58,640 nt of DNA, from the NCBI GenBank assembly GCA_038256525.1, contig JBBSKF010000004.1, positions 1-58,640 on the forward strand. The letters run 5' to 3'. This DNA is from Mycobacteriales bacterium (lineage in GTDB: Bacteria > Actinomycetota > Actinomycetes > Mycobacteriales > SCTD01). The position numbers and the translations under genes are program-made. Numbering within the stretch: position 1 is the first letter of the stretch; each line of letters starts with the position of its first letter. Below, one piece after another: positions 37,263 through 54,892 of the stretch. The notes under the pieces were generated by a model. That model searched no databases and was not told the origin of the DNA. It saw only the letters and a program-made list of their open reading frames with translations.

Positions 37263-37433
37263 GCCACGCGGCCAGGCACGGACTCACGGTTCTTTTCAGC
37301 AGCCATAGGATCATGTGGTGACCCCTTCACGCGCGCTCCCACAGGGGTGCCCGGGCGTTCGTCACCACAGACAGGCAGGGGCATGGTTCGCGCCATCGGG
37401 TGAGTGGGCGATGCGGTGCGAGGAACGCCTCGC

Positions 37434-38528: not shown

Positions 38529-38529
38529 G

Positions 38530-39489: not shown

Positions 39490-39886
39490 CCTCCAGGACC
39501 AGTCGATGCGCTTCCTGCTCGTCGGCGCCACGAACACGGCCGTCACCGGACTGCTCCTGCTCCTGCTGGCCGGGCCGATCGGACTGGAGCTCGCCTACAC
39601 GATCGTCTTCGTCCTCGGTCTGGCTTTCACCACGGTGTTGACCGGCCGCTACGTGTTCTCGACCACGACCTCGTGGCGGAGATCAACGCTCTTCGTCCTG
39701 TGGTACCTCGGGGTGTACGGGCTGGGTCTCGGCCTGATCTCGGCCCTCGACACAAGACTGTCCAACGCGTGGACGGTGCTGGTGATCCTGCTCGTGACCG
39801 TTCCCACGAACTTCCTGGGCGGGCGGCTCATCTTCCATGGGTCGGCGCACCCCGCCCGGACTTTCCACCAGGAGAGAACCTCATGA
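39482..39886 (+). CDS. GtrA-family small membrane protein
   Basis: [21 protein letters not shown] plus 4 TM segments. Overlaps both neighbouring genes. Confidence 0.8.
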
Positions 39887-40818
39887 ATCACTTTGTCCAC
39901 GACAAGGGTCTCTGCGAAAGTGATGCCGTCGGCGACGGCACCCGGATCTGGGCTTTCAGTCACGTGCTCGCGGGCGCACAGATCGGCGCCGACTGCAACA
40001 TCTGCGACCACGTGTTCATCGAGAACGACGTCGTCATCGGTGACCGGGTGACCATCAAGAGCGGTGTGCAGCTCTGGGACGGGACGCGGCTCGCCGACGA
40101 CGTGTTCGTCGGCCCCAACGTCACGTTCACCAACGACCGCTTCCCGCGAAGCAAGCTCTACCCGTCCTCCTTCCCGCAGACGGTCATCGGTCCTGGCGCA
40201 TCTCTGGGGGCAAACGCCACGATCCTCCCGGGGGTCAGGATCGGTCGCCGCGCAATGGTGGGCGCGGGTGCCGTGGTCACCAAGGACGTGCCACCACATG
40301 CCATCGTCGTGGGAAACCCAGGTCGGATCGTGGGCTACGAGGATGCGACGGGCGACGACCCCGACGTGACCCGGACCCGCAACGACGCGCTTCCGGACAG
40401 CCGCGTGCCGGGCGCCACCCTGCTCAGACTCACGCGCGCCGAGGACCTGCGGGGCAGTCTGGTCGCCGCGAACTTCGAACAGGACCTGCCGTTCATACCG
40501 CGCCGCTTCTTCACCGTCTTCGACGTCCCGTCGAGCGATGTCCGTGGCGCGCATGCGCACCGCCGCTGCCACCAGCTGCTGATCTGCGTTCAGGGGAGTG
40601 TCAATGCCCTCGTGGACAACGGGGACACCCGCCAGGAGTTCACGCTCGACCGCGCCGACGTCGGGCTGCATGTGCAGCCGATGATCTGGGGCACGCAGTA
40701 CCGATACACCGCCGATGCCGTGCTCCTCGTGCTGGCCTCGGACCCCTACTCCGCCGACGACTACATCCGCGACCACGACGACTTCCTCGCCGAGGTGGCG
40801 CGGAGGCGACAGGGCTGA
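39883..40818 (+). CDS. Bifunctional WxcM-like protein: N-terminal LbH acetyltransferase + C-terminal FdtA-like cupin (3,4-ketoisomerase)
   Basis: Hexapeptide repeats ([28 protein letters not shown]...), then [37 protein letters not shown], the FdtA/WxcM cupin signature. Confidence 0.75.
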
Positions 40819-40831
40819 GTGCCCACACCTC

Positions 40832-41437
40832 TCACGCCTTCCGTGCGCTCCACGGCGCATCCACGGCCCGCAGCGCCGCCCCACCCCGCAGCGCCGCGAA
40901 CGCCGCGAGCAGCCCCGCCACCGTGATGCCGTTCTCGATCTCCCCGGCCAGCACCCGCGCCACCGCCTGCTCCAGCGGCACCCGCGTCAGCTCCATGTCG
41001 GCCTCCTCGTGGAAGGCGACGTGCCGCTCCCCCGCCGGCACGTCGACCAGGTCGCGGGCCAGCAGCAGCCGGATCGTCTCGTCCGTCATCCCGGGCGAGG
41101 TGAGGATGTCGCACAGGCAGTCCCACCGCCCGGCGGTCACGAAAGCCTCCTCCGCCAGCTCCCGCCGCCCCGCCTCCAGCGCCGACTCGGTCGTCGAGTC
41201 CAGCAGCCCGGCCGGGATCTCCCACAGGTGCCGGCCGACCGGGTGGCGGTACTGCCGCACCAGCAGCACCCGCTCCTGGTCGTCCAGCGCCACGATCCCG
41301 ATCGCGCCCGGCAGCTCCACCACGTCGCGCTGCGACACCGCCTCGCCCGGCATCGCCACCTGGTCCGAGCGCACCGCCAGCACCCGGCCGTCGAACACCC
41401 GCCGGGAGGCCCGGACCTCGTACGCGTGGTCGGCCAC
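40832..41437 (-). CDS. NUDIX hydrolase
   Basis: Nudix box GLLDSTTESALEAGRRELAEEAF. GTG start at 41437. Confidence 0.85.
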   Translation of the reverse strand: MADHAYEVRASRRVFDGRVLAVRSDQVAMPGEAVSQRDVVELPGAIGIVALDDQERVLLVRQYRHPVGRHLWEIPAGLLDSTTESALEAGRRELAEEAFVTAGRWDCLCDILTSPGMTDETIRLLLARDLVDVPAGERHVAFHEEADMELTRVPLEQAVARVLAGEIENGITVAGLLAAFAALRGGAALRAVDAPWSARKA

Positions 41438-41440
41438 GGG

Positions 41441-42775
41441 TCAGGCGATGCCGGCCATCGCGCCCGCCGGGTCGGCGATGTACTCGCGTACGCACGAGAT
41501 GACGTAGTCCAGCATCTCGTCGGTCAGCCCCGGATAGACCCCGAGCCAGAAGGTCTGCTCGGTGACGATGTCGGCGTTGTGAAGATCCCCGACCACCCGG
41601 TGCTCGATCCCGGCATAGGCCGGCTGGCGCAGCAGGTTGCCACCGAACAGCTGGCGGGTGGCGATCTTGCGGACGTCCAGGAACTGCACCAGCTCGTGGC
41701 GCTTCGCGACCGAGCCGGGCCGGATCGTCACGCAGAAGCCGAACCAGCTCGGCTCGCTGTGCTCGGTCGCCCTCGGCATGATCAGGCAGTCGAGGTCGGC
41801 CAGGCCGTCGTGCAGCGTCTGCCAGTTGCGGTTGCGGGCCTTGATGAACCCGTCCAGCTTCGACATCTGCGCGGCCCCCACCGCAGCCTGCATGTCGGTC
41901 GCCTTGAGGTTGTAGCCGATGTGGCTGTAGGTGTACTTGTGGTCGTAGCCGTGCGGCAACGTGCCGAGCTGCCAGTCGAAGCGCTTGCCGCAGGTGTTGT
42001 CCTTGCCCGGCTCACACCAGCAGTCGCGGCCCCAGTCGCGGAACGACTCGACCAGCGGCTTCAGCTTCGCCCGCTTGATCATGACGGCGCCGCCCTCGCC
42101 CATCGTGATGTGGTGGGCCGGATAGAAGCTGACCGTCGAGACGTCGCCGAAGCTGCCGGTCATCTTCCCCTTGTACTTCGCGCCGAGCGCGTCGCAGTTG
42201 TCCTCGAGCACCCAGAGCCCGTGCTCCTTGGCGAGCTGCATGACAGCGCCGAGATCGAACGGGTTGCCCAGTGTGTGGGCCATCGAGATGGCCCGAGTCT
42301 TCGGGCTGATCGCCTCGGCGAGCCGGTCGACCTGGACGTCGTAGGTGCCGAGCTCGATGTCGAGGAACACCGGCACCAGCCGGTTCTGGATGATCGGGTT
42401 GACGGTGGTCGGGAAACCCGCGCCGACGGTGATGACCTCGTCGCCCGGTTTCAACGCCCGCTCGCCCAGCTTGGGCGAGGTCAGCGCGGACAGCGCGAGC
42501 AGGTTGGCCGACGATCCGGAGTTGCACAGGAACGCATGCCGTACGCCCAGGAACTCCTCCAGCTGGCGCTCGAAGCTGGCGGCGTAGCGGCCGGTGGTGA
42601 GCCAGAAGTCGAGCCCGGAGTCGACGAGCGACGCCATCTCGTCACCGTCGAAGACCTTGCCCGACACCGGGATCGGGGTCTGTCCCGGCACGAAGTCGCG
42701 GACCGGGAAGGCCTCGACGTGGTAGTCGCGGACCAGCGCGAGGATCTGCGCGCGCAGGTCGCCGGCCCGGCTCAT
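41441..42775 (-). CDS. rfbH: CDP-4-keto-6-deoxy-D-glucose-3-dehydrase (E1, RfbH/DdhC)
   Basis: DegT fold with His in place of the PLP lysine ([14 protein letters not shown]) and the C-x-C-x7-C iron-sulfur motif ([11 protein letters not shown]). Both are hallmarks of E1. Confidence 0.9.
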
Positions 42776-43725
42776 CCGGTCGTGCCGCCCGGCCGCATCC
42801 CCGCTGCTGTCTGCTCGACGAGCTCGGCCAGGGGCGCGAAGTCCAGACCGCAGTGCTCGGCCAGCTGGGCCATCTGCCCAGGCTTCCCGACGTAGCGGTC
42901 CTCCGGCGCGTCCGGGTCGAACGAGCGCTCCACCGCCTCAGGGGGGAGCCCGTGCAGCTGCGCGACCAGCGCGGCCAGCTCGCCGATCTCGACGACGTGG
43001 CCACCGCTGTCGAACACCAGCGGGATCTGCGACAGCAGCGACCACAGCCCGACGGTGAGAACCTCGGCCACGCCGACGTAGGAGCGGATCACCGGCGCCT
43101 TCGAGCGCACGCGCAGCGGCCCCCCCGCCTGCGCCATCGCGATGAAGGCCCCGAGCGCGTAGACCTCGTGCTGGGTGATACCGCGTCCCGCCACGCTGAA
43201 GACCCGGGCGACGACAGACGTCCCGCCGATGTCGGCCATCGCCTGGCGCAGGGCCAGCTCGTCGAGATGCTTGAGCGTGCCGTACGGATTGCCGGTCAGG
43301 TCGCAGGACATGTGCCGCGCCTTGTCGTAGACCGCACCCGAGGAGGTCGTGAGCAGGCCGCGCGGATGCAGCCGGGAGATCGCCCCGAGCACCGTCGCGG
43401 TGATCTGCAGGTTCTGCTCGAGGTAGTCGGGCAGACCCAGCTTCGCCGCGTGGTTCCGGGTGAGGAATGCGAAGTGCAGGACGTGTGTCGCGCTGCCGAT
43501 GCTCCCCGCGAGCTCGGACAGGGCGTGCACCTGCACCGTGCGTCCGCGGGTGGTCTGCACGGTGCGGGGGCGGCTGGCGTAGGCCGTGACGCGCTCGCCG
43601 GCCTGCTCCCCCAGCAGCTCGTCGAGCAGGTCCAGGGCGGTGACGCCGAACCAGCCTGTCGCACCCGTGACGGCGAAGTGCTCGTCGCCCCGCAGGAGCG
43701 GACGAAGCACCTCGGTCGGTGTCAT
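42772..43725 (-). CDS. NAD(P)-dependent sugar epimerase/reductase (SDR)
   Basis: ATG 43725 (MTPTEVL). Rossmann motif VTGATGWFG and catalytic YGTLK. The upstream part of the 613-aa ORF-track entry is not coding. Confidence 0.75.
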
Positions 43726-44525
43726 GAGCCACCGCTCAGGACGCGCCAGCGGCTCTCCAGCATGTCGATGCGTCTGGCGTCCTCCTGGAAGATCCGGCCG
43801 TAGTACTCCCGCTTGTTGATCAGCCACAGCAGCTCGAAGTGGACGGCGTTGAGCAGCCCCTGCTTGACGTCGTCCCGGTCCAGCGCTTCGGCCAGGAAGA
43901 CCACCTTGCGCGTCTCGAATCGGGTCAGGTGCACCGCCCGGACCCGCTGGAGCACGTCGATGCTGTCCATCGACACGCCCCCGCCCACGACCAGGTCGAG
44001 CCCGTGGGCCTTGCACACCTCGGCGGTTCGCAGGACGTAGTCGGTGATCGCCTCGTCGTTGATGGAGTCGCGGGTGCGCCCGATCGAGCCCGAGAAGTCG
44101 ACCCGGCCGAAGACCATCCCGTCGACACCGGGAACGCCGGTGGCGACCTTCGCCATCTCGTCGAGGTGCTCGAAGCCGGTGATCGTCTCGATGTTGAACA
44201 GGAAGTCGGTGTCCTCGGCCTCGTCCGCGCTGTAGACGAGGTCCTTGGCCGCGACGTACTTCGACAACGCGTACGGCGTCTCGATCATCGGCGCGACGAT
44301 GTAGCGGACGCCCACCTGCTTGGACTCCAGCAGGTCCCGGATCGCCTCGCAGCCACCGATCTTCACCGTGAGCAGCAGGCCGGCGGCGTGGGCGATGTCG
44401 ACGAGCCGGAGCAGCTCGTCCATGCGTGTGCCCTCGGCCTCGAACTCCGCCTTGACGGCGCCGTAGCCGTACAGCTCGCGGCCCTGACGCAGGATGTCTG
44501 TCATCTGGCGCTCGATCTTGTTCAT
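43722..44525 (-). CDS. HpcH/HpaI aldolase / citrate-lyase beta-like family protein
   Basis: 267 aa with [26 protein letters not shown] and [14 protein letters not shown]-barrel aldolase-like motifs. Assigned by resemblance only. Confidence 0.6.
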
Positions 44526-44681
44526 TGCACTGTCCCTTCACACAGAAAGCGCGGCGCCCGGGTAGATCAGCTCGACCGCAGCGATGACCGAAGGTCGACT
44601 GGCAGGGCGTCACGGTGCGGTCCGGACGTCCAGGTGGCGTTGCAACCTAACGGTATCCGGCCGGGCTGCCCGGGAGGACAC

Positions 44682-45470
44682 TCACCGGTCGAGCAACGCG
44701 TTCGTGAAGTCGGCGAGACTGCGGTAGCCCATCGCCGGGTCGGCGATGAGCACCCCCGGCACACCCGCTGCCGCAGCCATTCCCAGGTCGGCCTCGACGC
44801 TGTCACCGACGACGAACCAGTCGCTGTGTCCCGTGCCGGTGAGGTCCCACAGGTCAGTCAGCATCTGCGGGGCGGGCTTGCCGACCACGACGTCAGCGGT
44901 GCGGCCGGCCGCCGACTCCACCGCCGCGAGCAGGGGGCCACAACCAGGCAGCAGCGTGCCGCCTGCGCCGGGGTAGCTCCGGTCACGATTGCACCCGATC
45001 AGCGGCACGCCACGCCTGAGCGCGGCCAGCGCGGCGGCCAGGCGCAGATAGCTGAACCCCACGTCCAGGCCGACGATGACGGCGCCCGCCTCCTGCGGAT
45101 CGTCGGTGCCGACCAGCCGGAAGCTCTCGCACTCCTGCACCAGACCCGCACTTCCCAGCAGCAGGATCGGCTGACCATCAGGCAGCAGCCGACTGGCCGC
45201 CCGCGCGGCGAGATACCCGGATGTGGTGACCTGGTCGACCGTGCAGGGCACCCCCAGCCGCCTCAGCTTGGTGGCGACGTGCGCTCTGGTCGCGGCGGAG
45301 GAGTTCGTGACGAAGCGGACGGTCCGGCCCGACGCACGCAGGTCGCGGACCGCCTCCACCGCTCCCGGTAGGGCCGCCGGCCCGTGGTAGAGCACGCCGT
45401 CCAGGTCGAGCGCCAACCAGCGCCGGCCGGCCAGATCGGCCGTGGTCGCGCTCACCGCCGACGGGCTCAC
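44682..45470 (-). CDS. HAD-IIA family hydrolase (sugar-phosphatase-like)
   Basis: GTG 45470 overlaps the stop of the ThDP gene. LALDLDGVLY (DxDG), FVTNSS and VGDSVEADL. Confidence 0.75.
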   Translation of the reverse strand: MSPSAVSATTADLAGRRWLALDLDGVLYHGPAALPGAVEAVRDLRASGRTVRFVTNSSAATRAHVATKLRRLGVPCTVDQVTTSGYLAARAASRLLPDGQPILLLGSAGLVQECESFRLVGTDDPQEAGAVIVGLDVGFSYLRLAAALAALRRGVPLIGCNRDRSYPGAGGTLLPGCGPLLAAVESAAGRTADVVVGKPAPQMLTDLWDLTGTGHSDWFVVGDSVEADLGMAAAAGVPGVLIADPAMGYRSLADFTNALLDR

Positions 45471-47293
45471 TGCTCGAGCAGTGGCACGAGCATGTTTGCC
45501 TGGAGCTCGGTCCGGTCCAGAAACGGCGCGAGGTCCTCCAGCGGCGCCGAGACCATGCGTCCGTCGGGCAGCATCCGTGAGGCCGACTTGGGCGCAAACG
45601 GCTGGTCGAGATCGAGGATCACCTCGCACAGCTGCGGCCCGACCGCAGCGAGAACGTCCCCCAGCACCTGATCGAGCTCGTCGTGGGTGGCCACCTGGCT
45701 GAAGGGGATCTCGAACGCCGCGGCCAGGCGCTCGAAGCGGGGGAACCACACGCCGGTGTCGCTGCCGCAACCGACCTCACGACCCGGGAAGTAGGTGTTC
45801 TGGGTCTGGCGGATGGAGTGGTAGCCGGCGTTGTTGAGCACGAAGATCTTGACGTTGAGGTCGTGCCCCCGAATCGTCGCCAGCTCCTGCACATTCATCA
45901 TCAGGCTGCCGTCGCCGGCCAGGCACACGACCGAGGTGTCACGGCCGAGGGCGACGGCCGCCCCGACGGCTGCCGGGAGGTCATAGCCCATCGACGCGGC
46001 GCCGGAGTTGGTGTAGAGGCGCTGCCCCCGCTTCACCCGGGCTGCCTGGAAGGTCACGACGCACGCGGTGCCGTCGCCGCACACGGTGACCTGGTCCTCG
46101 GGCAGGGCCGCCGTCAGCCGGTCGACGAAGACGTAGGGGTTGACCGCCGAGCTCTCGGCGTATTCGGGCAGCACGACCGGGTAGTCCGCCAGTCGCTGCC
46201 GGCACCAGGCGAGCCACGGCGCATGCCGGCCGATCGACTCGGTCGGTCCCGCCGCGACAGCGCAGACGAGGAACTCACTTAGCTCGGCATGCACCGGCAC
46301 ATCGACGTGCAACGTGGGCTTGGCGAGCTCGGCAGGGTCGATGTCGACCATGACCACCCGCGCGCTACGGGCCCAGGTGGCCCAGGCATAACCGACCTGA
46401 CGCACGTTGAGCCGGCTCCCCAGCACCAGCAGCAGATCGGCGTTCTGCACGGCGAAGTTGCCGGGCCGCGTGCCGACGGTGCCGGGTCGGCCGGCAAAGA
46501 GCTCGTGGTCGTCCCAGAGCAGGTCATGGGCGTTCCATGCCGTCACGACGGGGACACCGAGCGCGTCCACGAAGCGCAGGAAGTCGTCGTAGGCGCCCGC
46601 CGACCGGATGCCACCGCCGGCCAGCACGACGGGACGCTCGGCCACGGACACCGCCGCCAGCACGCTGGCCACCTGGGCTTCCAGGTCGGCTCCGGTGATG
46701 GGTGCGGGACCGCCTTCCCGCATCGCGGCCGGGTCGAAGCCGTCGAGCTCGGCTGACGTCACCGGCGCAGCCTGCACGTCGATCGGGATGTCGAGCCACA
46801 CCGGCCCTGGGCGCCCCTCCTCCGCCGCCCACAACGCGCGCTCGAGCTGCATCCTGACATCACCCGGCTCGCGGACCAAAGCGGCGTACTTCGTGACGCT
46901 CGCCATGATCCGGACGATGTCGATCTCCTGGTCGCCCAGCTGCCGCAGGGGGAGGCCGGTGCTCTCGACCATCGTCTCCCGCTTCACCTGGCCGGAGATC
47001 ACGATCAGCGGGACCGAGTCGGTCCAGGCGCCGAAGATCCCGGTCAGGGTGTTGGTCCCCCCCGGGCCCGTCGTCACGTTGACCGCGCACAGCCGCCCGG
47101 TCAGGCGGGCATAGCTCTCCGCCGCCATGGCACACGCCTGCTCGTGGTGACAGGGGACGACCGTGAGCCCAGGGTGTGCGCCCAGCGCGTCGTTGAGGTG
47201 CATGGCCCCACCGCCGGTGACCATGAAGACGTGCCTGACACCGTGCTCGACCAGGCGCTGTGCGACGTAGTCGGCGACGCGGGCGCCACTCAT
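45467..47293 (-). CDS. Thiamine-diphosphate enzyme, acetolactate-synthase large-subunit-like (YerE-like candidate)
   Basis: 608 aa. N-terminal Pyr domain (HVFMVTGGGAMHLNDAL) and ThDP motif GDGSLMMNVQELATI...VLNNAGY. Confidence 0.9.
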   Translation of the reverse strand: MSGARVADYVAQRLVEHGVRHVFMVTGGGAMHLNDALGAHPGLTVVPCHHEQACAMAAESYARLTGRLCAVNVTTGPGGTNTLTGIFGAWTDSVPLIVISGQVKRETMVESTGLPLRQLGDQEIDIVRIMASVTKYAALVREPGDVRMQLERALWAAEEGRPGPVWLDIPIDVQAAPVTSAELDGFDPAAMREGGPAPITGADLEAQVASVLAAVSVAERPVVLAGGGIRSAGAYDDFLRFVDALGVPVVTAWNAHDLLWDDHELFAGRPGTVGTRPGNFAVQNADLLLVLGSRLNVRQVGYAWATWARSARVVMVDIDPAELAKPTLHVDVPVHAELSEFLVCAVAAGPTESIGRHAPWLAWCRQRLADYPVVLPEYAESSAVNPYVFVDRLTAALPEDQVTVCGDGTACVVTFQAARVKRGQRLYTNSGAASMGYDLPAAVGAAVALGRDTSVVCLAGDGSLMMNVQELATIRGHDLNVKIFVLNNAGYHSIRQTQNTYFPGREVGCGSDTGVWFPRFERLAAAFEIPFSQVATHDELDQVLGDVLAAVGPQLCEVILDLDQPFAPKSASRMLPDGRMVSAPLEDLAPFLDRTELQANMLVPLLEQ

Positions 47294-48024
47294 GCAGCAG
47301 CGCCGATCTCGCGGGTCACCAGCAGCGTGAGAGCCGAGGCGGTGGCCCCGAGGTATTCGACCGCGCCGGTCGGAAGCACCAGCTCGTCGAGAACTCTACG
47401 TTCGTCGTCATCCATCGCCTCATCGAAATAGAGCAGGTCACCGGCGCGCAACCAGGGCGCGACGTGACGCCACGCCGCTGCGGTGGGCTCGTAGATGTCG
47501 AGGTCGAACAGCACGATGCGCCGGGGGCCCGCCAGGTCTGCATCCGGCAGTTCCCCCAGCGTCTGTTCGACGTCGCCGATGTGCCAGCGCACCCGAGCGT
47601 CCCTGATCTGCGGAGGGTGCCCGGCCGCATCGAATTCCCCTTTCGGTAGGCCGCGCCAGGCCCGGGGCAGACCGGTGAACCGGTCGAAGCCGTGCCAGAT
47701 CAGCGAGGGATTGCCGACGCGGTCCAGCCACCATGTCGTGGTGTAGCCCCACGCCACGCCGAACTCCAGCACGGTCACCGGCTCCCCCGGCGGGAGCCGT
47801 CGAACCAGGCTGTCCCAGAGGTCCTCGCGTCGCGACGTGATGCGCACAGCCCCGAAGCTGTCGATCTGCCACTCGACGAAGTCGGCGATGTCCCCGGCGT
47901 TCTTCATCTTCTTGCGCAGGGTGGACGACGAGGCGGAAAGCCGGGCGAACACCGCCTGAGCGCGCAGGGTCGCGACCGACGGTGCCCCGGCCGGAACCGC
48001 GGACGCCGAAGAACGAGGAGACAC
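47290..48024 (-). CDS. TylF/MycF-like class I methyltransferase-fold protein
   Basis: VLEFGVAWGYTT and VLFDLDIYEPT, which resemble macrocin-O-methyltransferase motifs. ATGA overlap with the ThDP gene. Confidence 0.55.
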   Translation of the reverse strand: MSPRSSASAVPAGAPSVATLRAQAVFARLSASSSTLRKKMKNAGDIADFVEWQIDSFGAVRITSRREDLWDSLVRRLPPGEPVTVLEFGVAWGYTTTWWLDRVGNPSLIWHGFDRFTGLPRAWRGLPKGEFDAAGHPPQIRDARVRWHIGDVEQTLGELPDADLAGPRRIVLFDLDIYEPTAAAWRHVAPWLRAGDLLYFDEAMDDDERRVLDELVLPTGAVEYLGATASALTLLVTREIGAAA

Positions 48025-48029
48025 AGTCC

Positions 48030-48482
48030 CTACTTCCGTCGAAAGGAGAAACGCTGATGGAGCGCATAGGTCACCACCGCTGAGACGGCCAGAAAGCCCG
48101 CCTGTGCGGGGATGACCGGCACCTGCAGCACCTCGACGAGCAACGGCAGCACCACGAGGTTGACCGCGAAGGCGCCGAGGTAGACCGACCAGAACCGGAG
48201 CAGGTCGGGCAGGATCCTGCCGTGCACGCGAAACACCCAGATGCGTTGCACGGCAAAGGCCTCCAGCACGGCGACGACATGGCTGAGGGCGAGCACGATC
48301 AGGTAAGGAAGGGCGTCGCCCCAGAGCAGTTCCAGCGCGCCGAACACGGCGAAGGCGAACGCGGTGTTCACCAGTCCGACCGCGATGAAGCGCATCATCC
48401 GCCGGTAGTCCCGACCCTGGGGGATGTCACCGCTCGGTACGACAGCATCCGTCTCCGCCACGGCAGTCCTCCGCACGGTCAC
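48030..48482 (-). CDS. GtrA-family small membrane protein
   Basis: MMRFIAVGLVNTAFAFAVFG core. A GTG at 48482 gives a GTGA overlap with the upstream gene (alternative start ATG 48398). Confidence 0.75.
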   Translation of the reverse strand: MTVRRTAVAETDAVVPSGDIPQGRDYRRMMRFIAVGLVNTAFAFAVFGALELLWGDALPYLIVLALSHVVAVLEAFAVQRIWVFRVHGRILPDLLRFWSVYLGAFAVNLVVLPLLVEVLQVPVIPAQAGFLAVSAVVTYALHQRFSFRRK

Positions 48483-49771
48483 GTCAGCGACATCGCGGCA
48501 CGTCCGGGGCCGGTGGCTGCCTCGGGCTGGATGCTCGCGCCGGAGCCGGCTGGCTGGCGGAGCGCCACTGACGACAGCCCGACCACCAGGATCAGCAGCA
48601 AGATGGGGTTGACCAGGGCGCTGAGCCCCACATCGCCGTAGAGGGTGGGGAGTGCTTTGGGCACGAGCAGCAACCCCAGCACCAACAGTGCCGGGAACCG
48701 AAGCAGACCGGGTGGCTGACCCAGCATCAACAGCAGCGGAACGACGAGAAGCACGAGCCGATAGTCGAAGGCCACGGGCAGAGCGACGACGGTCAACGCG
48801 GCGACAATCGCGCACGACTGCCAGGCGAACAGGCGTCCGGACAGCACGGCGACCGCGCCCACGACGACCAGGGCGAGTGAGACCACCGTGGCGACCCCAC
48901 CCAGGGACGGCCAGGTCGGTAGGAGCTCTGCGAGGGCACTGGCCAGGCCGCGAAGACTGCTTCCGTGCTGGACACCGAACTCATTGTCGGCGATGGAGTT
49001 GAACCCACGTCCGGCAGCGAGCATGGCCTCGACGTTGTTGACCAGGCCCCCCGAGAAGCTCAAGAGGCTCAGCAGCGTGAGAAGGCCTGCCGTCCCGACG
49101 GCGATCATGCTGTCCCGATATCTCCGGGCGCCGAGCAGGACCAGCACGAACAGCACCGGATAACCCTTCATGGCGGCGGCCGCACCGATCAACACGGCGC
49201 TGATCGCCCACGCCTCGCGGCGGGCGAGAAGGATGGCGGCCGCCAGGAAAAGGAGAATCAAGCCTTCCACGTTGCCCCGGTCGAGCATCAGCAACACGGG
49301 ATAGTTGAGCAGACCCAGCACGCCGGCCGCCAGCAGCCGTAACGGCATGTCCAGATAGGACAGCTGCGCGCCGAGCAGGCCCACGACCGCCACCGCCAGG
49401 CCGATGAGGAACAGGGCGAGCACCAGGGTGTAGGGGAGCCAGGTGAATGGCCGGAGCAGAAGGTGGGTGAAGGGGAGGTAGTTGCTGGAGAGGAACACAC
49501 CCTGGCCGAGATCGAGGTAGGGACTCGGATCGCCGGACAGGCGCAAGGTGAGGAACAGATCCCCGAAACCGTGCACTCCGACGACATCCTGGCTGCCCGC
49601 GAACTCCCCGTCATCGGGGCGGAACAGGAAGGTGTTGTCCGGATAGGGCTTACCGCGATACACCCCCTGCACGTAGTGGGAGACGACGGCGATGAAGAAG
49701 CCGGTCAGCATGAGCAGCACCAGCCACCACACCTCGTTCACGTCCCGTCGCAAGCGCTCTGGTCGGCTCAC
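48479..49771 (-). CDS. Polytopic GT-C-type glycosyltransferase (DUF2029/GT87-like)
   Basis: GTG 49771 (GTGA overlap). ~430 aa and almost entirely TM, with GAAAAMKGYPVLFVLVLL and an early acidic loop (RPDDGEF). Family assigned by resemblance and context. Confidence 0.6.
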   Translation of the reverse strand: MSRPERLRRDVNEVWWLVLLMLTGFFIAVVSHYVQGVYRGKPYPDNTFLFRPDDGEFAGSQDVVGVHGFGDLFLTLRLSGDPSPYLDLGQGVFLSSNYLPFTHLLLRPFTWLPYTLVLALFLIGLAVAVVGLLGAQLSYLDMPLRLLAAGVLGLLNYPVLLMLDRGNVEGLILLFLAAAILLARREAWAISAVLIGAAAAMKGYPVLFVLVLLGARRYRDSMIAVGTAGLLTLLSLLSFSGGLVNNVEAMLAAGRGFNSIADNEFGVQHGSSLRGLASALAELLPTWPSLGGVATVVSLALVVVGAVAVLSGRLFAWQSCAIVAALTVVALPVAFDYRLVLLVVPLLLMLGQPPGLLRFPALLVLGLLLVPKALPTLYGDVGLSALVNPILLLILVVGLSSVALRQPAGSGASIQPEAATGPGRAAMSLT

Positions 49772-50814
49772 AGACCGACCCGCCCCCGGACGACGTAGTT
49801 CGGACGCTGTTTCACCTCCTCGTAGATGAGCCCCACGTATTCGCTCACGACCCCGATCATCGAGAACAGGATGCCGAACAGCAGAAGGGTGAAACCGATG
49901 ATGCTTCCGAAGCCTGCGAAGGGGACACCGAACAGCACGAACCGCAGCGCGAGAACCACGAGCGTGAGAAACGACAGGGCGGAGACCGCAAAACCACTGA
50001 TCGTGATGAGTCGCAGCGGGACGTAGGAGTGCGCGAAGATCCCCTTGAAAGCAAGGTCGATGACCTTCAGGCTGTGCGCGTTCGAGACGCCCCCGAAGCG
50101 CGGTGGGCGCTCGTGCTCGATGCCTATCGAGCGGTAGCCGACCCAGGCGAACAGACCCCGGACGAAGCGGTTCCGCTCCTCCATCGTGTTGATGGTCTCG
50201 TAGACCCTGCGGTCGACGAGCCGGAAGTCGCTGGCATTGCGCGGGATGCGGTCGTCGGTGAGCTTTCCGGCCAGCCAGTAGAAGGCCTTGGAGTTGAACG
50301 TGCGCAGCGGGCCGGTCCCCTGCCGCTCGCTGACGACCATGTAGATGTTCTCGTAGCCCTCCTCCCACTTGCGCAGGAAGGTCGAGATCAGCTCGGGCGG
50401 GTCCTGCAGGTCGGCGGTCATGACGACCGCGGCGTCGCCGGTCGCGTGCGCCAGCCCCGCGGTGAGCCCGCCGTCCATCCGGAAGTTGCGGGCGAGCTGC
50501 ACCACCTTGAAGCGGGGGTCGCGGTGGTGGATCGCCAGCAGCTTGTCCCAGGTGTCGTCGATCGAGCCGTTCTCGACGACGATGATCTCGAAGTCGTACG
50601 CCGGCTCGGCGGCCATGAGCAGCGTCAGCCGGCGGGCGAGCTCGTCCACGCAGTCGGTCTCGTTGTAGGCCGGGATGACGACACTGACGAGCTGTCGACC
50701 GGCTGTGGGAGGTCGCCGGGTCGAGGGCTCGGGCACCTGCTCCGGCACGAGGACCGGGTCGTGCAGGTCCGGCGTGCGTCCGCTCGCGGGCCGGATCGGG
50801 CTCGCGTCGCTCAC
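49768..50814 (-). CDS. GtrB/DPM1-like polyprenyl-phosphate glycosyltransferase (GT2 with 2 C-terminal TMs)
   Basis: VSVVIPAYNE, IIVVENGSIDDT, MTADLQDPPELI, and a C-terminal TM pair. Confidence 0.85.
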   Translation of the reverse strand: MSDASPIRPASGRTPDLHDPVLVPEQVPEPSTRRPPTAGRQLVSVVIPAYNETDCVDELARRLTLLMAAEPAYDFEIIVVENGSIDDTWDKLLAIHHRDPRFKVVQLARNFRMDGGLTAGLAHATGDAAVVMTADLQDPPELISTFLRKWEEGYENIYMVVSERQGTGPLRTFNSKAFYWLAGKLTDDRIPRNASDFRLVDRRVYETINTMEERNRFVRGLFAWVGYRSIGIEHERPPRFGGVSNAHSLKVIDLAFKGIFAHSYVPLRLITISGFAVSALSFLTLVVLALRFVLFGVPFAGFGSIIGFTLLLFGILFSMIGVVSEYVGLIYEEVKQRPNYVVRGRVGL

Positions 50815-51791
50815 CCTGCCGACGCCAGGAGCCGCCGGTACCAGGCCACGGTGTCGGCGAGCCCCTGCTCCAACGACCAGCCGGCGCTCCAGTCGAGCTC
50901 CTTGCGGGCCTTGGCGGAGTCGAGGTACTGGTCCCGGATCTCCTGCTTCGCCTGCCCCAGCACGAGCGGCTCGACCGGTCCGCCGACGACCGCGTCGCAG
51001 ACGGCGGTGTAGATGTGCATCACCGACAGCGGCTCCTCGGCACTGAAGTTGAAAGCCGCGCCGGGCGCGATGGTCCCGTCGAGCGCTCGGGCCGTCACAA
51101 GATAGGCGTCCACCACGTCCTCGACGTAGAGGTAGTCGCGCAGGAACGTGCCGTCCGAGCGCAGGACCGGCTGGTCACCGCGCAGCAGCGACCGGATCGT
51201 GCCCGGCACGATGCGACTCCAGTTGAGGTCGCCACCCCCGTAGATGTTGCCGCAACGGGCGATGGCGACGGGGGTGCCGTAGGTGAGCGCGTAGCTGGCG
51301 CTGATCAGGTCGGTGCAGGACTTCGACACTTCGTACGGCGCCGTTCCGCGCAGCGGCATGTCCTCGGTGTAGGGCAGCTCGGGCACCGCGCCGTAGGCCT
51401 TGTCGCTGCTGGCGACGACGACCCGGCGTACGAGCTCGGGGTGGATCCTGGCCGTTTCGAGGACGTTCCATGACCCGGCGACGTTGGCCTGCAGGGTCGC
51501 GAGGGGCGAGCGGAAGGCGGTGCCGACGATGGTTTGCGCGCCCAGGTGCAGGATCGTGTCGACGTCGTGCTCGTTGACCGCACGCTCGACCGTCTCGTAG
51601 TCCTCGAGCCGGCCGTTGACGACCGAGGTCTGGGCGATCGTCCCGCTGCGCAGCAGTTCGGACTGGGGGTCGGCGTCGCGAACCAGCACCACGACGTGGG
51701 CGTTCTCGTCGACCAGCCGCCGGGTCGCCCAGGCGCCGACCATGCCGGTGGCGCCGGTGACCAGGACGCGCTTGTCCGACCAGTAGCTCAC
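50811..51791 (-). CDS. rfbG: CDP-glucose 4,6-dehydratase
   Basis: VLVTGATGMVGAW and YEVSK. GTG 51791 gives a GTGA overlap with rfbF. Confidence 0.85.
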   Translation of the reverse strand: MSYWSDKRVLVTGATGMVGAWATRRLVDENAHVVVLVRDADPQSELLRSGTIAQTSVVNGRLEDYETVERAVNEHDVDTILHLGAQTIVGTAFRSPLATLQANVAGSWNVLETARIHPELVRRVVVASSDKAYGAVPELPYTEDMPLRGTAPYEVSKSCTDLISASYALTYGTPVAIARCGNIYGGGDLNWSRIVPGTIRSLLRGDQPVLRSDGTFLRDYLYVEDVVDAYLVTARALDGTIAPGAAFNFSAEEPLSVMHIYTAVCDAVVGGPVEPLVLGQAKQEIRDQYLDSAKARKELDWSAGWSLEQGLADTVAWYRRLLASAG

Positions 51792-52573
51792 TCCCACACC
51801 TTCCAGGGCGCGTTGCCGCGGCTCCACAGCTCGTTGAGCATCGTGGACTCGCGGTAGGTGTCCATCGGCTGCCAGAAGCCGTCGTGCTGGTAGGCCACCA
51901 GCTCGCCGCGGGCGGCGAGCTCCGCGAGCGGTTCCTGCTCGAGCACCAGGTCGTCGCAGTCCTGCCCGAGCACGTCGAGCACGCTGCGCTCGAAGACAAA
52001 GAATCCGGCGCTCACCCAGTCGTCGACCTGCGGCTTCTCGCGAAAGCGCTGGACGACCGCGGCGGCATCGAGGTCCACCAGCCCGAAGCGCGACAGCGGT
52101 CGGACCGTGGTGATGGTGGCCAGCTTGCCGTGGGCTTCGTGGAAGGCGAGCAGCTTGCCGATGTCGACGTCGGCGAGGCCGTCGCCGTACGTCACGATGA
52201 AGCGCTCGTCCTGCTCGACGTAACGCCGGATGCGCGCGACCCGCCCCCCGGTCTGCGTGGACGGCCCGGTGTCGGCCACCGTCACCCGCCAGTCCGACTC
52301 GAGGTGCTGGTCGTGGAAGACGATCTCGTGGGAGCGGCCGAGGGTGATGGTGAAGTCGTTGTTGCGTGCCTCGTAGTCGAGGAAGTACTCCTTGATGATC
52401 TCGCCCTTGTAGCCGGTGCAGACGACGAAGTCGTTGATGCCGTGAGCCGAGAAGATCTTCATGATGTGCCAGAGGACCGGCTTGCCGCCCACCTCGACCA
52501 TCGGCTTGGGACGGAACTCGGTCTCCTCGCGCATCCGGGTGCCCAGCCCACCCGCGAGCAGGACGGCCTTCAT
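51788..52573 (-). CDS. rfbF: Glucose-1-phosphate cytidylyltransferase
   Basis: MKAVLLAGGLGTRMREETEFRPKPMVEVGGKPVLWHIMK, the canonical RfbF/DdhA N-terminus. Confidence 0.9.
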   Translation of the reverse strand: MKAVLLAGGLGTRMREETEFRPKPMVEVGGKPVLWHIMKIFSAHGINDFVVCTGYKGEIIKEYFLDYEARNNDFTITLGRSHEIVFHDQHLESDWRVTVADTGPSTQTGGRVARIRRYVEQDERFIVTYGDGLADVDIGKLLAFHEAHGKLATITTVRPLSRFGLVDLDAAAVVQRFREKPQVDDWVSAGFFVFERSVLDVLGQDCDDLVLEQEPLAELAARGELVAYQHDGFWQPMDTYRESTMLNELWSRGNAPWKVWE

Positions 52574-52722
52574 GTCTGCAGTCCCCACTTTCCGCATCCG
52601 CTCAGCGTGGTCGCTCGTCCTCGGGCAGGCTACCTACACCGACCACCCCAGAGCGGTTGCCACACCCGGTCCTGTGTCTGCCTCGCGCTATACCCTCGCC
52701 CTTGCCCCGCCGAAGGAGAACC

Positions 52723-53427
52723 GTGGAACCCGTGCTCCTGGCCCGCCAGCTCGTCGTCGACTTCGGCGACGTCCGCGCGGTCGACGGCTTCGACCTGTCG
52801 GTCGGTGCCGGTCGCAGCGTCGCACTCGTCGGCCGCAACGGCGCCGGCAAGTCGACCACCATGCGGGTGCTGGCCGGGGTGCTGCCGCCGAGCAGCGGCT
52901 CGGTCATCGTCGCCGGGATCGACGCGGCGAAGGACCCCTCTGGCGTCCGCGCGGTCGTCGGCTACTGCCCCGATGTCGGCGGGCTGATCCCCCGCGCCAC
53001 CCCGTGGGAGCACCTGCAGCTGGCGGCCAAGCTGCGTGGCATGAAGGGCTGGCAGGACCGGGCGACCGAGCTGCTCGACCGCTTCGACCTGGCCGGCGTC
53101 GCCGACCGGGTCACCGCCGGGTTCTCGCACGGCATGGGCCGCCGGTTGTCGGTGGTCCTCGCCACCTTCCACGAGCCGCGCCTGCTGCTGCTCGACGAGC
53201 CGTTCGACGGCGTCGACCCCCTCGGGGTGGACGCCACCCTCGAGGTGGTGGCCGAGGCCCGGGCCACCGGCGCCGCCGTGTTCGTCTCGACCCACCTGCT
53301 CGGCCTGGCCGTCCGCGCCTGCGAGGAGGCCGTCGTGCTCAAGGGCGGGCGCGTGGTCGGCGCCGCGCCCGCCGCTGAGCTGACCGGGAGCGAGGGCGAC
53401 ATCCGCTACCGAGCGCTCATCACGTGA
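52723..53427 (+). CDS. ABC transporter ATP-binding protein
   Basis: GTG 52723 after GAAGGAGA. Walker A GRNGAGKST, signature FSHGMGRRLS, Walker B LLLLDEPFDGVD. Confidence 0.85.
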   Translation: MEPVLLARQLVVDFGDVRAVDGFDLSVGAGRSVALVGRNGAGKSTTMRVLAGVLPPSSGSVIVAGIDAAKDPSGVRAVVGYCPDVGGLIPRATPWEHLQLAAKLRGMKGWQDRATELLDRFDLAGVADRVTAGFSHGMGRRLSVVLATFHEPRLLLLDEPFDGVDPLGVDATLEVVAEARATGAAVFVSTHLLGLAVRACEEAVVLKGGRVVGAAPAAELTGSEGDIRYRALIT

Positions 53428-53439
53428 GCCCCGGTCGCC

Positions 53440-54705
53440 TCAGGGGCCGAGCGCCCCGAGGGCGATGACGTTCACCCCGTCGGTGCGGCGGTAGGACGGA
53501 CCGGTGGCCACGACGATCCCCAGGCCCGCGGGCGGTGTCCTCATGGCGGCCCCGAACCGCACCAGCCCCTTGGCCGCCGCATCGAGCACCGTGTCCGACC
53601 CGGAGAGCTTGATCTCGAGCCCGACCCACTGGCTCCTCGGTCCGACGACGATCGCGTCGACCTCCACATCCCGGTCGTCGCGGTAGGCCCGCACCTGGCC
53701 GCCGAGCGCGTAGGCGTATGCGCACAGGTCCCGGTGGACCAGGCTCTCGAACTGGAAGCCGAACATCTCGCGGTCCCTGAGCAGCGCGGTCGGATCAGCT
53801 CCGAGAGCAGCAGCGGCCAGCGACGGATCGATCAGGTGGCGCTTGGGTTTGGACCGGACCTGCGCGCCCGGGCGGAGATGGCCACCCCATGCCAGCTGCT
53901 CGTCGACGACCCAGAGGCGCAGCAGGGGGTCGAGGTAGCTGCTGACCGTCTTGGCCGTCACGGGCTCGCCCTGACCGGTCGCGTCGGCGGCGAGCACCTT
54001 CAGGTCGGTGTACGTCGAGGTGTGACGGGCCAGCGAGAACAGCAGGGCCTTGACCTTGCGCGGGTCGCGCCGAACCTGGTCCACCTCGACGATGTCGGTG
54101 CCGGCGATCGTGTCGAGATAGTCCCGCGCGGCCTGCTGGGCATCGTCGATGTCACGCCGGAGGGTCGCGGGCCAGCCGCCCCGACAGGTGAGCTCCGCGA
54201 TGGCCGTCAGGTCGTGCACCGGCGGCGCGGCGGTGCTGTCCGCACCGGCAAGCAGGCCGGCGAGAGAGACTGCACCGGTCGAGTCCCCCGACTCGTACAG
54301 GCTCATCGGACGCATCCGCAGGCGCGAGATGCGCATCGCTCCCGAATGTCGCGTCAGGCTCTCGGACGGAGAGGCAGATCCGGTGAGGATGAACTGCCCG
54401 TCCTGCTGGCGATCGTCGACGGCCGCACGCACGGCGTCCCAGACCTCGGGGACACGCTGCCACTCGTCAATCAACCGCGGGGTCGCTCCGTCGAGCAGCA
54501 TGGCGGGATCTGCGAGCCCCGCGCGCCGCATCGCGGGATCGGCGTCCAGGCGCACCTCGCTGCCAGCCTGCTGCCGTGCGGTCGAGGTCTTACCGCACGC
54601 CTTGGGTCCTTCGAGCAGGACTGCGCCATGGGACCGCAGCCGCTGGCGCAGTACGTCGTCGACAAGGCGCGGGAGGTACTGCGGTCGGCGCGGTCCTGTG
54701 GTCAT
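53440..54705 (-). CDS. AAA-type ATPase (DUF4143-like)
   Basis: 421 aa with Walker A LLEGPKACGKTSTA and LIDEWQRVPEVW. Sits on the opposite strand between the ABC ATPase and the permease. Confidence 0.8.
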   Translation of the reverse strand: MTTGPRRPQYLPRLVDDVLRQRLRSHGAVLLEGPKACGKTSTARQQAGSEVRLDADPAMRRAGLADPAMLLDGATPRLIDEWQRVPEVWDAVRAAVDDRQQDGQFILTGSASPSESLTRHSGAMRISRLRMRPMSLYESGDSTGAVSLAGLLAGADSTAAPPVHDLTAIAELTCRGGWPATLRRDIDDAQQAARDYLDTIAGTDIVEVDQVRRDPRKVKALLFSLARHTSTYTDLKVLAADATGQGEPVTAKTVSSYLDPLLRLWVVDEQLAWGGHLRPGAQVRSKPKRHLIDPSLAAAALGADPTALLRDREMFGFQFESLVHRDLCAYAYALGGQVRAYRDDRDVEVDAIVVGPRSQWVGLEIKLSGSDTVLDAAAKGLVRFGAAMRTPPAGLGIVVATGPSYRRTDGVNVIALGALGP

Positions 54706-54892
54706 GAAGGGACGACTTCTCTGCGCTAGACGAGTAATAACGGCGTTGCGCTTCCGATATTACCGGAAGCTCGCATCTCCCGCGGGTGGACACAGCCCGA
54801 GCAGGAGTGGCGGGCCGGTTCGCGGATCGGCCTGTAGCCTCGGCGTCGCGGCGCCGAAGAAGGAGTGTGGACCCCCTGCCCCTGCCCGGCCG

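Follow-up and report, generated by a model that had tools for sequence, protein, structure and literature searches.

A 12-gene operon for a probable long-branched dideoxyhexose

We analysed a 58,640-nt stretch of DNA from a Mycobacteriales bacterium (assembly GCA_038256525.1, contig JBBSKF010000004.1, positions 1 to 58,640), which is referred to as the window. The original prediction, made from the sequence alone, had claimed a 12-gene operon at 40832-52573 for a cytidine diphosphate (CDP)-activated 3,6-dideoxyhexose. This operon was confirmed: all 12 genes are co-directional on the minus strand and fill the region exactly. In our view, the operon is likely to serve both synthesis and export of a 3,6-dideoxyhexose with a long branch, like caryophyllose or gastriose. 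Its features are listed below in the order of transcription, with product lengths in amino acids (aa); SDR stands for short-chain dehydrogenase/reductase, GT for glycosyltransferase, ThDP for thiamine diphosphate and HAD for haloacid dehalogenase.

51788..52573 (-), rfbF, glucose-1-phosphate cytidylyltransferase, 261 aa, makes CDP-glucose
50811..51797 (-), rfbG-like extended SDR, 328 aa, probable CDP-glucose 4,6-dehydratase (TIGR02622 as best family; PF01370, PF16363)
49768..50814 (-), GtrB-family polyprenyl-phosphate GT2, 348 aa (match to 5ekp)
48479..49771 (-), GT87-family membrane glycosyltransferase (GT-C), 430 aa, about 10-11 transmembrane segments (PF09594)
48030..48482 (-), GtrA-family small membrane protein, 150 aa, putative lipid-linked-sugar flippase (PF04138)
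47290..48024 (-), TylF/CalS11-like protein with class I methyltransferase fold, 244 aa (PF13578, CalS11)
45467..47293 (-), YerE/JanthE-like ThDP-dependent carboligase, 608 aa (PF02776, PF00205, PF02775)
44682..45470 (-), HAD-IIA phosphatase, 262 aa (TIGR01460)
44526..44681 (-), non-coding gap of 156 nt at the HAD/aldolase junction
43722..44525 (-), class II (metal-dependent) pyruvate aldolase-like protein of the HpcH/HpaI superfamily, 267 aa (PF03328)
42772..43725 (-), extended SDR, 317 aa, probable YerF/ErwF-type reductase of the branch C-1' ketone (PF01370)
41441..42775 (-), rfbH/E1, CDP-6-deoxy-L-threo-D-glycero-4-hexulose 3-dehydrase, 444 aa (NF011936)
40832..41437 (-), NUDIX hydrolase, 201 aa, ADP-ribose-pyrophosphatase-like (PF00293)

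The junctions, read downstream from rfbF, measure -10, -4, -4, -4, +5, -4, -4, +156, -4, -4 and +3 nt, and the 4-nt stop/start overlaps at most of them indicate one translationally coupled operon. It begins with the rfbF start codon ATG at 52573, with GGAAAGTGGGGA ahead of the start and a divergent ABC-ATPase gene at 52657 about 85 nt away. At its other end, the operon lies 14 nt from the stop codon of a convergent gene on the plus strand (39673-40818). Its G+C content (0.66-0.70) is like that of the remainder of the window. The only sizeable gap, 156 nt ahead of the aldolase gene, may hold an internal promoter or start; the same junction is also gapped in two relatives, by 62 nt in locus L001 and 74 nt in locus L006. 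A consensus promoter was not found in this gap (44526-44681), and an Rfam scan of 40500-52900 gave no match, so that neither a thiamine pyrophosphate (TPP) riboswitch nor another known RNA was seen there. Scans for sigma-70 promoters and intrinsic terminators at both operon ends found none, which is uninformative for a high-G+C actinobacterium.

The block ThDP-HAD-aldolase-SDR-NUDIX-E1, together with rfbF, the GT2 gene and gtrA, recurs in loci L001, L002 and L006 with 51-89% protein identity. A cassette kept in three other organisms shows that this gene set is not a chance arrangement.

Genes for the CDP-activated precursor

RfbF passed the equivalog cutoff of TIGR02623 (357.2 against 300.25 bits) and also matched PF00483, which upholds its earlier assignment as a glucose-1-phosphate cytidylyltransferase. 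The assignment of rfbH/E1 stood equally well, with 711 bits against a cutoff of 423 for NF011936. The hallmarks of E1 enzymes are a C-X57-C-X-C-X7-C iron-sulfur motif and a histidine in place of the lysine that binds pyridoxal phosphate (PLP), and both are present here, as the [2Fe-2S] motif C194-X57-C252-X-C254-X7-C262 and as the histidine in SFYPAHH. The RfbG-like protein is of a divergent type and shares 86% identity with the copy in L002, a locus from a Frankiales metagenome-assembled genome (MAG). In L001 (17548-18952), a 79%-identical relative, the E1 and dehydratase genes are followed by genes for a thioredoxin-reductase-like flavoprotein (Pyr_redox_2) and a small 4Fe-4S ferredoxin, which could stand in for the absent E3 reductase considered below.

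The ThDP enzyme is separate from acetolactate synthases

The best reading of the 45467..47293 product is a carboligase predicted to attach an acyl branch at C-4 of a CDP-4-keto sugar. All three TPP domains were recognised, and the sequence holds the catalytic HHEQ as well as GDG...NN in its canonical form. Its best match in the PDB was JanthE (8rph; 425 bits, 40% identity over the full length), and the matches to PpYerE (248 bits) and acetolactate synthase (ALS, 232 bits) both scored well below this. JanthE is a biochemically characterised YerE-like carboligase that accepts ketones, C3-C6 keto acids and pyruvate in vitro.

The best-scoring NCBIfam families for this enzyme were ALS large subunits, at about 340 bits, and metagenome sources label its relatives 'acetolactate synthase'. 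An ordinary ALS, or another ThDP enzyme of central metabolism that lies in a glycan locus by chance, is nevertheless hardly credible. All ALS equivalog cutoffs were missed widely (343.5 against 738 and 339.6 against 538 bits), no gene for a small regulatory subunit is present, and the gene is translationally coupled to the sugar genes, with a conserved linkage to the aldolase and E1. In a maximum-likelihood tree, E. coli ALS I and the Arabidopsis acetohydroxyacid synthase (AHAS) split from it with 100/100 support. The clustering with bona fide ALS that the original prediction had named as the grounds for giving up its reading was thus not seen, and ALS was rejected as the identity of this enzyme.

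From the ALS outgroup, the tree branched to PpYerE, then to JanthE and then to two well-supported clades of aldolase-adjacent enzymes; PpYerE was the sole YerE-named enzyme placed in it. The window enzyme belongs to clade A (14 rows, 55-81% identity, 100/100 support), whose sister is the enzyme of Mycobacterium seoulense (support 97/89). Clade B holds most of the aldolase-linked ThDP enzymes, at 32-40% identity to that of the window, among them that of Mycobacterium sp. OTB74. The motif PLED(L/M)xP, which reads PLEDLAP in the window, lies in a C-terminal extension common to clade A, the M. seoulense enzyme and JanthE; the motif is absent from 62 of 62 clade B rows, PpYerE and ALS. The clade with this JanthE-like C-terminus is of interest to biocatalysis, where ketone-accepting carboligases with long, functionalised donors are sought.

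An aldolase as the most likely source of the branch

The 43722..44525 product most likely makes the alpha-keto acid donor. It matched PF03328 (HpcH_HpaI) with 34.4 bits against a cutoff of 25. Its residues E113 and D143, both invariant in 39 homologues, align with the VES and ADLS stretches of YfaU, which we take to hold the metal ligands of that enzyme. Foldseek placed its AlphaFold2 model (mean predicted local distance difference test score, pLDDT, 92.9) among the HpcH/HpaI/SbnG/CLYBL barrels with a template-modelling (TM) score of about 0.6, and the model thus supports a distant but real member of the HpcH/HpaI superfamily.

Across species-representative genomes, at least 452 loci from Actinomycetota, Acidobacteriota, Pseudomonadota and other phyla carry this aldolase at 60-85% identity; Mycobacterium marinum was not among the closest 80, and the species of the window does not belong to the genome set scanned. 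Counts of gene context rest on 86 loci, drawn mainly from those closest 80 of the at least 452. Near the aldolase, a ThDP gene was present in 77 of the 86, E1 in 55 and rfbF in 47.

Such an aldolase has a place in a published pathway. The unifying scheme of Steitz et al. 2022 covers erwiniose, caryophyllose and gastriose: the hydroxylated 2-keto acid comes from an aldolase, its addition to CDP-4-keto-3,6-dideoxyglucose is the work of a YerE-like ThDP enzyme, and the branch is completed by a reductase (PMC9306805). Alpha-keto acids formed by an aldolase serve ErwE, MMAR_2332 and MyGE as donors; MMAR_2331 (of the aldolase/citrate-lyase family), MMAR_2332 and MMAR_2333 are all required for the addition of caryophyllose in M. 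marinum (PMC9306805). Caryophyllose occurs in the lipooligosaccharides of M. marinum and gastriose in M. gastri; the gastriose branch is a C7 chain that ends in CH2OH and carries two O-methyl groups (PMC9306805), and that of caryophyllose is a 1,3,4,5-tetrahydroxyhexyl group. The linkage to the aldolase and the published scheme together make a long branch much likelier than the two-carbon branch of yersiniose. Two statements of the original prediction need correction here: the aldolase had been put outside the known pathway, whereas an aldolase step belongs to the published long-branch scheme (PMC9306805), and such sugars had been called uncharacterised in actinobacterial surface glycans, where caryophyllose and gastriose are examples.

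The yersiniose-like product proposed earlier therefore stands in part: a CDP-3,6-dideoxyhexose branched by a ThDP enzyme, with an SDR reductase, was retained, and a long polyhydroxyalkyl branch is favoured in place of a C2 unit. In the yersiniose-like scheme itself, the ThDP enzyme would add two carbons from pyruvate and the SDR would reduce the product, and the aldolase, HAD, NUDIX and methyltransferase-fold proteins would act in later tailoring or be unrelated. RfbF, the RfbG-like protein, E1, the ThDP enzyme and the SDR do match the parts list of DdhA-C, YerE and YerF, and JanthE and MyGE accept pyruvate in vitro (for MyGE, PMC9306805). We regard this scheme as rather unlikely, since no other partner accompanies the ThDP enzyme as faithfully as the aldolase does, the window enzyme scores far lower with PpYerE than with JanthE, and ErwE rejects pyruvate and uses aldolase-type keto acids only, its authors arguing against an aldol extension after branching (PMC9306805).

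The supplier of the keto acid appears to be interchangeable, as judged from a locus without an HpcH aldolase: L004 (8010-12624), which comes from a Thermoanaerobaculia MAG, encodes a 63% identical ThDP enzyme of clade A between a NeuB-family synthase with an SDR and a TylF-family methyltransferase.

HAD phosphatase and dehydroquinate synthase-like genes rarely occur together

The HAD-IIA protein passed the TIGR01460 cutoff (111.1 against 100.15 bits) with its four motifs intact (DLDGV, TNSS, K198 and GD), and its PDB relatives act on small phospho-metabolites. Its gene is joined to the ThDP gene by a 4-nt overlap in the window, L001, L002 and L006. We propose that it would dephosphorylate a phosphorylated 3-deoxy-2-ulosonate or an aldehyde precursor.

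According to clustering of open reading frames (ORFs), the usual cassette of the related loci consists of the aldolase, a short SDR, a dehydroquinate synthase (DHQS)-like enzyme, the ThDP enzyme and the extended SDR. The DHQS-like gene carries PF01761 and PF24621, and its best NCBIfam match was TIGR04425, 'AroB-related putative sugar phosphate phospholyase', at 253 bits below a cutoff of 400. It occurs together with the short SDR in 58 of the 61 loci that have either gene. No homologue of this pair was found in the window, and it was absent from all HAD-IIA loci. Initial clustering gave an overlap of HAD and DHQS-like genes in 0 of 60 loci; jackhmmer then found distant HAD-IA genes in three DHQS loci, and the count was repeated within 5 kb. 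Among the 54 distinct loci with enough flank, counting genes up to 5 kb from the aldolase and taking HAD as type IIA or IA, 37 had only the DHQS-like gene, 14 only a HAD gene, one both and two neither (Fisher p = 5e-10).

DHQ synthases remove phosphate by elimination and HAD enzymes by hydrolysis, and the near-exclusivity of the two genes would fit alternative ways of phosphate removal, in which case the aldolase product would be phosphorylated. This suggests that the conserved aldolase makes a phosphorylated 3-deoxy-2-ulosonate, which with erythrose-4-phosphate as the acceptor would be an acid like 3-deoxy-D-arabino-heptulosonate 7-phosphate (DAHP). The DHQS-like enzyme and its SDR would leave a methyl group at the branch end, as in caryophyllose, and the HAD route a CH2OH end and hence a pentahydroxyhexyl branch.

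Pairs of a ulosonate-phosphate synthase and a HAD phosphatase are familiar from KdsA/KdsC of 3-deoxy-D-manno-octulosonate (Kdo) synthesis and from the synthases of N-acetylneuraminate-9-phosphate (Neu5Ac-9-P) and 2-keto-3-deoxynononate-9-phosphate (KDN-9-P) with their phosphatases. The M. seoulense locus pairs a NeuB-like synthase with a HAD gene beside the ThDP gene, which fits the same synthase/phosphatase logic. Two further readings were discarded: a carbocyclic sugar was ruled out by the absence of the DHQS-like gene from the window, and a sugar activated with cytidine monophosphate (CMP), of the Kdo or sialic-acid type, was rejected because no CMP-ulosonate synthetase is encoded and RfbF is the sole nucleotidyltransferase.

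Reductase, methyltransferase-fold and NUDIX genes

The extended SDR encoded directly after the aldolase matched PF01370 (53 bits) with intact GATGWFG (GxxGxxG) and YGTLK (YxxxK) motifs, and a homologue was present in 49 of the 86 loci; a search by sequence returned no PDB relative.

For the methyltransferase-fold protein, the closest structure by sequence was CalS11, a TylF-family sugar O-methyltransferase (E 1e-5). CalS11 was also the top Foldseek hit of its AlphaFold2 model (pLDDT 86.5), with an E-value of 1.7e-6 and a TM-score of only 0.48, together with MeT1 of M. hassiacum. CalS11 is the TDP-rhamnose (TDP, thymidine diphosphate) 3'-O-methyltransferase, and MeT1 is a mycobacterial sugar methyltransferase. 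The protein has the motif VLEFGVAWG for S-adenosylmethionine (SAM) and the acidic motifs DLDIY and DE; across 45 homologues E87, G89 and G93 never vary, and D174 and D176 are almost invariant. Homologues with 54-57% identity lie inside the branched-sugar loci of M. seoulense and Mycobacterium sp. OTB74. It probably O-methylates the sugar or its branch, as in gastriose.

The NUDIX protein exceeded the PF00293 cutoff (46 against 21 bits), has an intact REx2EE box and matched an ADP-ribose (ADP, adenosine diphosphate) pyrophosphatase chain, 1mk1, over its full length (160 bits, E 4e-46). Copies with 66-68% identity lie in the cassettes of L001, L002 and L006, and the gene takes three different positions among the four HAD-IIA organisms; its presence in the cassette of all four indicates that it belongs to the system. 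As candidate roles, it might keep the pool of CDP-sugar in check or provide a sugar phosphate. Colanic acid clusters hold a GDP-mannose (GDP, guanosine diphosphate) hydrolase, which is the analogy for pool control. The HAD, NUDIX and methyltransferase-fold genes had been described as additions to the known pathway, and the published scheme indeed does not cover them (PMC9306805).

The NUDIX and HAD enzymes might alternatively act before the aldolase: the NUDIX enzyme would release a sugar phosphate from a nucleotide sugar, such as ribose-5-phosphate from ADP-ribose, the HAD enzyme would free the aldose, and the aldolase would join it to pyruvate in a C8 acid, for an O-methylated, gastriose-like C7 branch. 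This would suit a NUDIX protein that is a full-length relative of ADP-ribose pyrophosphatase and that accompanies the HAD-IIA cassette in four organisms, and also the methyltransferase-fold gene, given the C7 branch, CH2OH end and two O-methyl groups of gastriose (PMC9306805). We judge it quite improbable: the window aldolase shares 76% identity with its counterparts in DHQS-type cassettes, so that an identical phosphorylated product is implied, a HAD gene occurs with no NUDIX gene in HAD-IA loci and in M. seoulense, and ribose-5-phosphate is abundant without hydrolysis of ADP-ribose. Dephosphorylation after the aldolase step thus remains our preferred order.

A putative lipid-carrier route for delivery

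The original prediction named the biosynthetic genes, which held, but left the GtrB-like GT2, GT87 and GtrA genes unnamed and did not tie the sugar to its delivery. The GT2 matched Synechocystis GtrB (5ekp) over its full length (242 bits, E 8e-71), followed by ArnC and dolichyl-phosphate mannose synthase (DPMS). It carries the motif ADLQDPPE, and a Kyte-Doolittle scan gave two or three C-terminal hydrophobic segments, two of them overlapping. The GT87 protein scored 66.4 bits with PF09594 (cutoff 25) and had weak PDB matches to the GT-C enzyme glycosylphosphatidylinositol (GPI) mannosyltransferase 1. GtrA scored 57.8 bits with PF04138 (cutoff 26.1) and has about four transmembrane segments (six partly overlapping hydrophobic windows). 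These predicted products form a complete three-component system of the kind reviewed in PMC11127046.

The GT2 is 78-86% identical in L001, L002, L006, L008 and L018. At 63-86% identity, its gene directly follows rfbF in L001, L006, L008, L018, L087 (M. seoulense) and L088 (Mycobacterium sp. OTB74), and rfbG in L002. GtrA copies (43-54% identity) occur in L001, L002, L006, L087 and L088, and GT87-like genes in 13 related loci, of which 9 belong to the 54 full ones. Besides GT2 and GT87, the operon encodes no glycosyltransferase. The adjacency of GT2 to rfbF, the position of the three genes in the operon and the lack of another glycosyltransferase argue that the branched sugar is probably delivered via polyprenyl phosphate by GtrB, GtrA and GT87. 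The tie between the lipid-carried sugar and the neighbouring biosynthesis genes is one of linkage, namely the 4-nt overlaps and the conserved rfbF-GT2-GtrA order. For the GT2, use of a CDP-sugar is inferred, as is the acceptor. The GT87 enzymes characterised to date have lipoglycans as their targets, so a wall polysaccharide or lipoglycan is a likelier acceptor than Tad pilin.

Another possibility is that the branched CDP-sugar is made as proposed but GT2, GtrA and GT87 serve a different, common one, for example glucose or mannose, and that a Leloir glycosyltransferase encoded elsewhere transfers the branched one, as M. marinum has a dedicated glycosyltransferase, MMAR_2333. To our knowledge, the characterised GtrB, ArnC and DPMS enzymes use UDP (uridine diphosphate)- or GDP-sugars, and only 20 of the 54 related loci have both GtrA and GT2. 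This separation of carrier and branched sugar is unlikely, as the three delivery genes are set between rfbG and the genes for the branch, with overlaps of 4 nt, GT2 follows rfbF or rfbG in the seven loci named above, and no further glycosyltransferase is present in the operon. Delivery of the branched sugar itself by the lipid carrier is therefore taken as the working scheme.

Proposed pathway and points against it

In the proposed pathway, for which we infer all substrates and the order of aldolase and phosphatase, RfbF would provide CDP-glucose, and the RfbG-like protein and E1, with an electron donor, would convert it into CDP-4-keto-3,6-dideoxyglucose. The HpcH-like aldolase would join pyruvate to a phosphorylated sugar aldehyde, of which erythrose-4-phosphate is the simplest guess, and the HAD-IIA enzyme would remove the phosphate from the resulting 3-deoxy-2-ulosonate phosphate. 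The YerE/JanthE-like ThDP enzyme would then decarboxylate the keto acid and add the acyl group to C-4 of the CDP-keto sugar, after which the SDR would reduce the new ketone and the TylF-like protein would probably O-methylate a hydroxyl. Finally, the GtrB-like GT2 would transfer the finished sugar from CDP onto polyprenyl phosphate, GtrA would flip the product, and GT87 would transfer the lipid-linked sugar to a cell-envelope glycan outside the membrane.

We hold a more specific version to be possible but tentative. In it, the choice between the DHQS-like enzyme with its SDR (CH3 end) and the HAD enzyme (CH2OH end) sets the branch end, the product is an undescribed omega-hydroxylated, probably O-methylated 12-carbon sugar, and the operon represents the first loading of a CDP-branched dideoxyhexose by a GtrB enzyme for transfer by GT87.

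Several observations weigh against the pathway. The RfbG-like protein has TIGR02622, CDP-glucose 4,6-dehydratase, as its best NCBIfam match, but at 177 bits it falls under the cutoff of 278, so that the earlier rfbG assignment holds for the closest family and not at equivalog level. The aldolase is a distant HpcH relative, only 12-20% identical to solved structures, and the methyltransferase-fold protein scored 24.7 bits with PF13578 (Methyltransf_24), just under the cutoff of 26.3. The NUDIX gene has no step in the scheme. HAD and DHQS-like genes stand together in one locus, and the 14.8-kb contig of Mycobacterium sp. OTB74 (L088) lacks both, a possible exception to the either/or pattern. GtrB-type enzymes characterised so far use, as far as we know, UDP-sugars, and the CDP donor proposed here is putative. 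An E3 reductase of the AscD/DdhD type was found neither among the 12 genes nor among the scanned flanking genes of the window. General ferredoxin or flavodoxin reductase pairs serve SpnQ, an E1 homologue from Saccharopolyspora; by this precedent, the missing E3 makes the 3-deoxygenation step less secure without disproving it.

Long-branched 3,6-dideoxy sugars are rare surface antigens, and the caryophyllose-containing lipooligosaccharides of M. marinum affect macrophage uptake and cytokine release. In the synthesis of such sugars, the aldolase, ThDP and reductase steps alone have been assigned so far. The pathway type is already known; the one new feature is the phosphatase in place of the DHQS-like enzyme of most relatives. 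As a variant, the operon combines this phosphatase-type cassette with the clade A JanthE-like ThDP enzyme, the putative methyltransferase, the NUDIX hydrolase and the probable Gtr-type lipid-carrier route. The either/or relation of HAD and DHQS-like genes gives a simple, testable rule for unassigned enzymes and would aid the prediction of branch structures from sequence data. Use of a CDP donor by a GtrB-type enzyme would, if true, be new. The operon suggests that GtrB-type carriers can handle CDP-activated, very bulky sugars, which would widen the scope of three-component glycosylation.

Mycobacterial relatives and neighbouring genes

Loci L087 and L088 both combine rfbF, E1, GT2, GtrA, ThDP and methyltransferase-fold genes. 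In M. seoulense (L087, 883-13761), the branched-sugar locus has a NeuB-cupin fusion in place of the aldolase, together with the ThDP enzyme that is sister to clade A, a HAD phosphatase, three methyltransferase-type genes, rfbF, E1, a GtrB-like GT2 and GtrA; a heptose-like set adjoins it (SIS, GHMP kinase, nucleotidyltransferase, transaldolase-family and HAD genes). Mycobacterium sp. OTB74 (L088, 412-12643) has an aldolase-type cassette with a 64% identical aldolase, a clade B ThDP enzyme, a GtrB-like GT2 and GtrA.

Within the window, a convergent four-gene operon on the plus strand (37404-40818), the last stop of which lies 14 nt from the NUDIX stop codon, encodes an aminotransferase of the DegT type, the second GtrB/ArnC-like GT2 and the second GtrA of the window, and a left-handed beta-helix acetyltransferase fused to an FdtA-like isomerase domain. 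The set resembles a pathway for a 3-acetamido-3,6-dideoxyhexose that supplies a further module of lipid-carrier glycosylation. Divergent from rfbF are the ABC-transporter ATPase gene (52657-53427) and then an AAA_14/DUF4143 ATPase gene (53440-54705, minus strand), followed by a long ORF with no Pfam match (54149-56389) and an Acyl_transf_3 gene (56335-57606); the region 52657-57606 may be a neighbourhood for glycan export and O-acylation. Tad/Flp pilus genes lie at 5043-10577 on the plus strand (a CpaE-like ParA ATPase, a CpaF-type T2SSE ATPase and a TadB/C-type T2SSF protein). These are the pili mentioned in the original prediction, and nothing connects them to the sugar operon.

Comparison with known systems

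The nearest solved and characterised relative of the ThDP enzyme is JanthE of Janthinobacterium sp. HH01 (PDB 8rph, 8rpi, 8rpj), with which it shares the C-terminal PLEDL(A/S)P extension; JanthE has CDG where the window enzyme has the canonical GDG. The pairing of aldolase and phosphatase is like the KdsA/KdsC and Neu5Ac-9-P/KDN-9-P pairs by analogy, a C3 unit being joined to a sugar phosphate and a HAD enzyme then removing the terminal phosphate. In those systems, the synthase depends on phosphoenolpyruvate (PEP) and the product is CMP-activated, whereas the window would use an HpcH-type pyruvate aldolase and pass the product on as a ThDP donor.

Gtr systems, such as GtrA/GtrB/GtrC of Shigella phages, CsbB/GtcA/YfhO of Gram-positive bacteria and the pentofuranose systems (PMC11127046), have the same three parts: polyprenyl phosphate is loaded by a GT2 of the GtrB family, a GtrA-family protein is the candidate flippase, and a polytopic GT-C enzyme works outside the membrane. 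Their known cargo is glucose, N-acetylglucosamine or a pentofuranose, whereas that of the window would be a CDP-activated 12-carbon branched dideoxyhexose, and the GT-C enzyme of the window is of GT87, a family otherwise known for mycobacterial mannosyltransferases.

Yersiniose A synthesis in Yersinia pseudotuberculosis (DdhA-D, YerE and YerF) uses the same route from CDP-glucose to CDP-4-keto-3,6-dideoxyglucose, followed by ThDP-dependent branching at C-4 and reduction. Unlike it, the window has no E3/DdhD in view, its donor is probably a long, aldolase-made keto acid and not pyruvate, and its ThDP enzyme is only distantly related to the YerE-named enzyme compared here, PpYerE.

The closest likeness is to the scheme for erwiniose (ErwI/J/E/F), caryophyllose (MMAR_2331-2333) and gastriose (MygI/E/F) (PMC9306805), which was set beside the window by description and not by sequence. 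Common to both are the genes for CDP-4-keto-3,6-dideoxyglucose, a keto-acid aldolase, a YerE-like ThDP carboligase and an NAD(P)H reductase, putative in the window; the caryophyllose and gastriose systems also share its actinobacterial host. A putative methyltransferase is encoded in the window, as a methyltransferase is in the R. palustris cluster and as expected for O-methylated gastriose. The window differs in adding a HAD-IIA phosphatase and a NUDIX hydrolase that lie outside the published scheme, in lacking the DHQS-like gene and short SDR carried by most of its relatives, in the separate clade A of its ThDP enzyme, and in the probable delivery by GtrB, GtrA and a GT-C enzyme in place of a Leloir glycosyltransferase.

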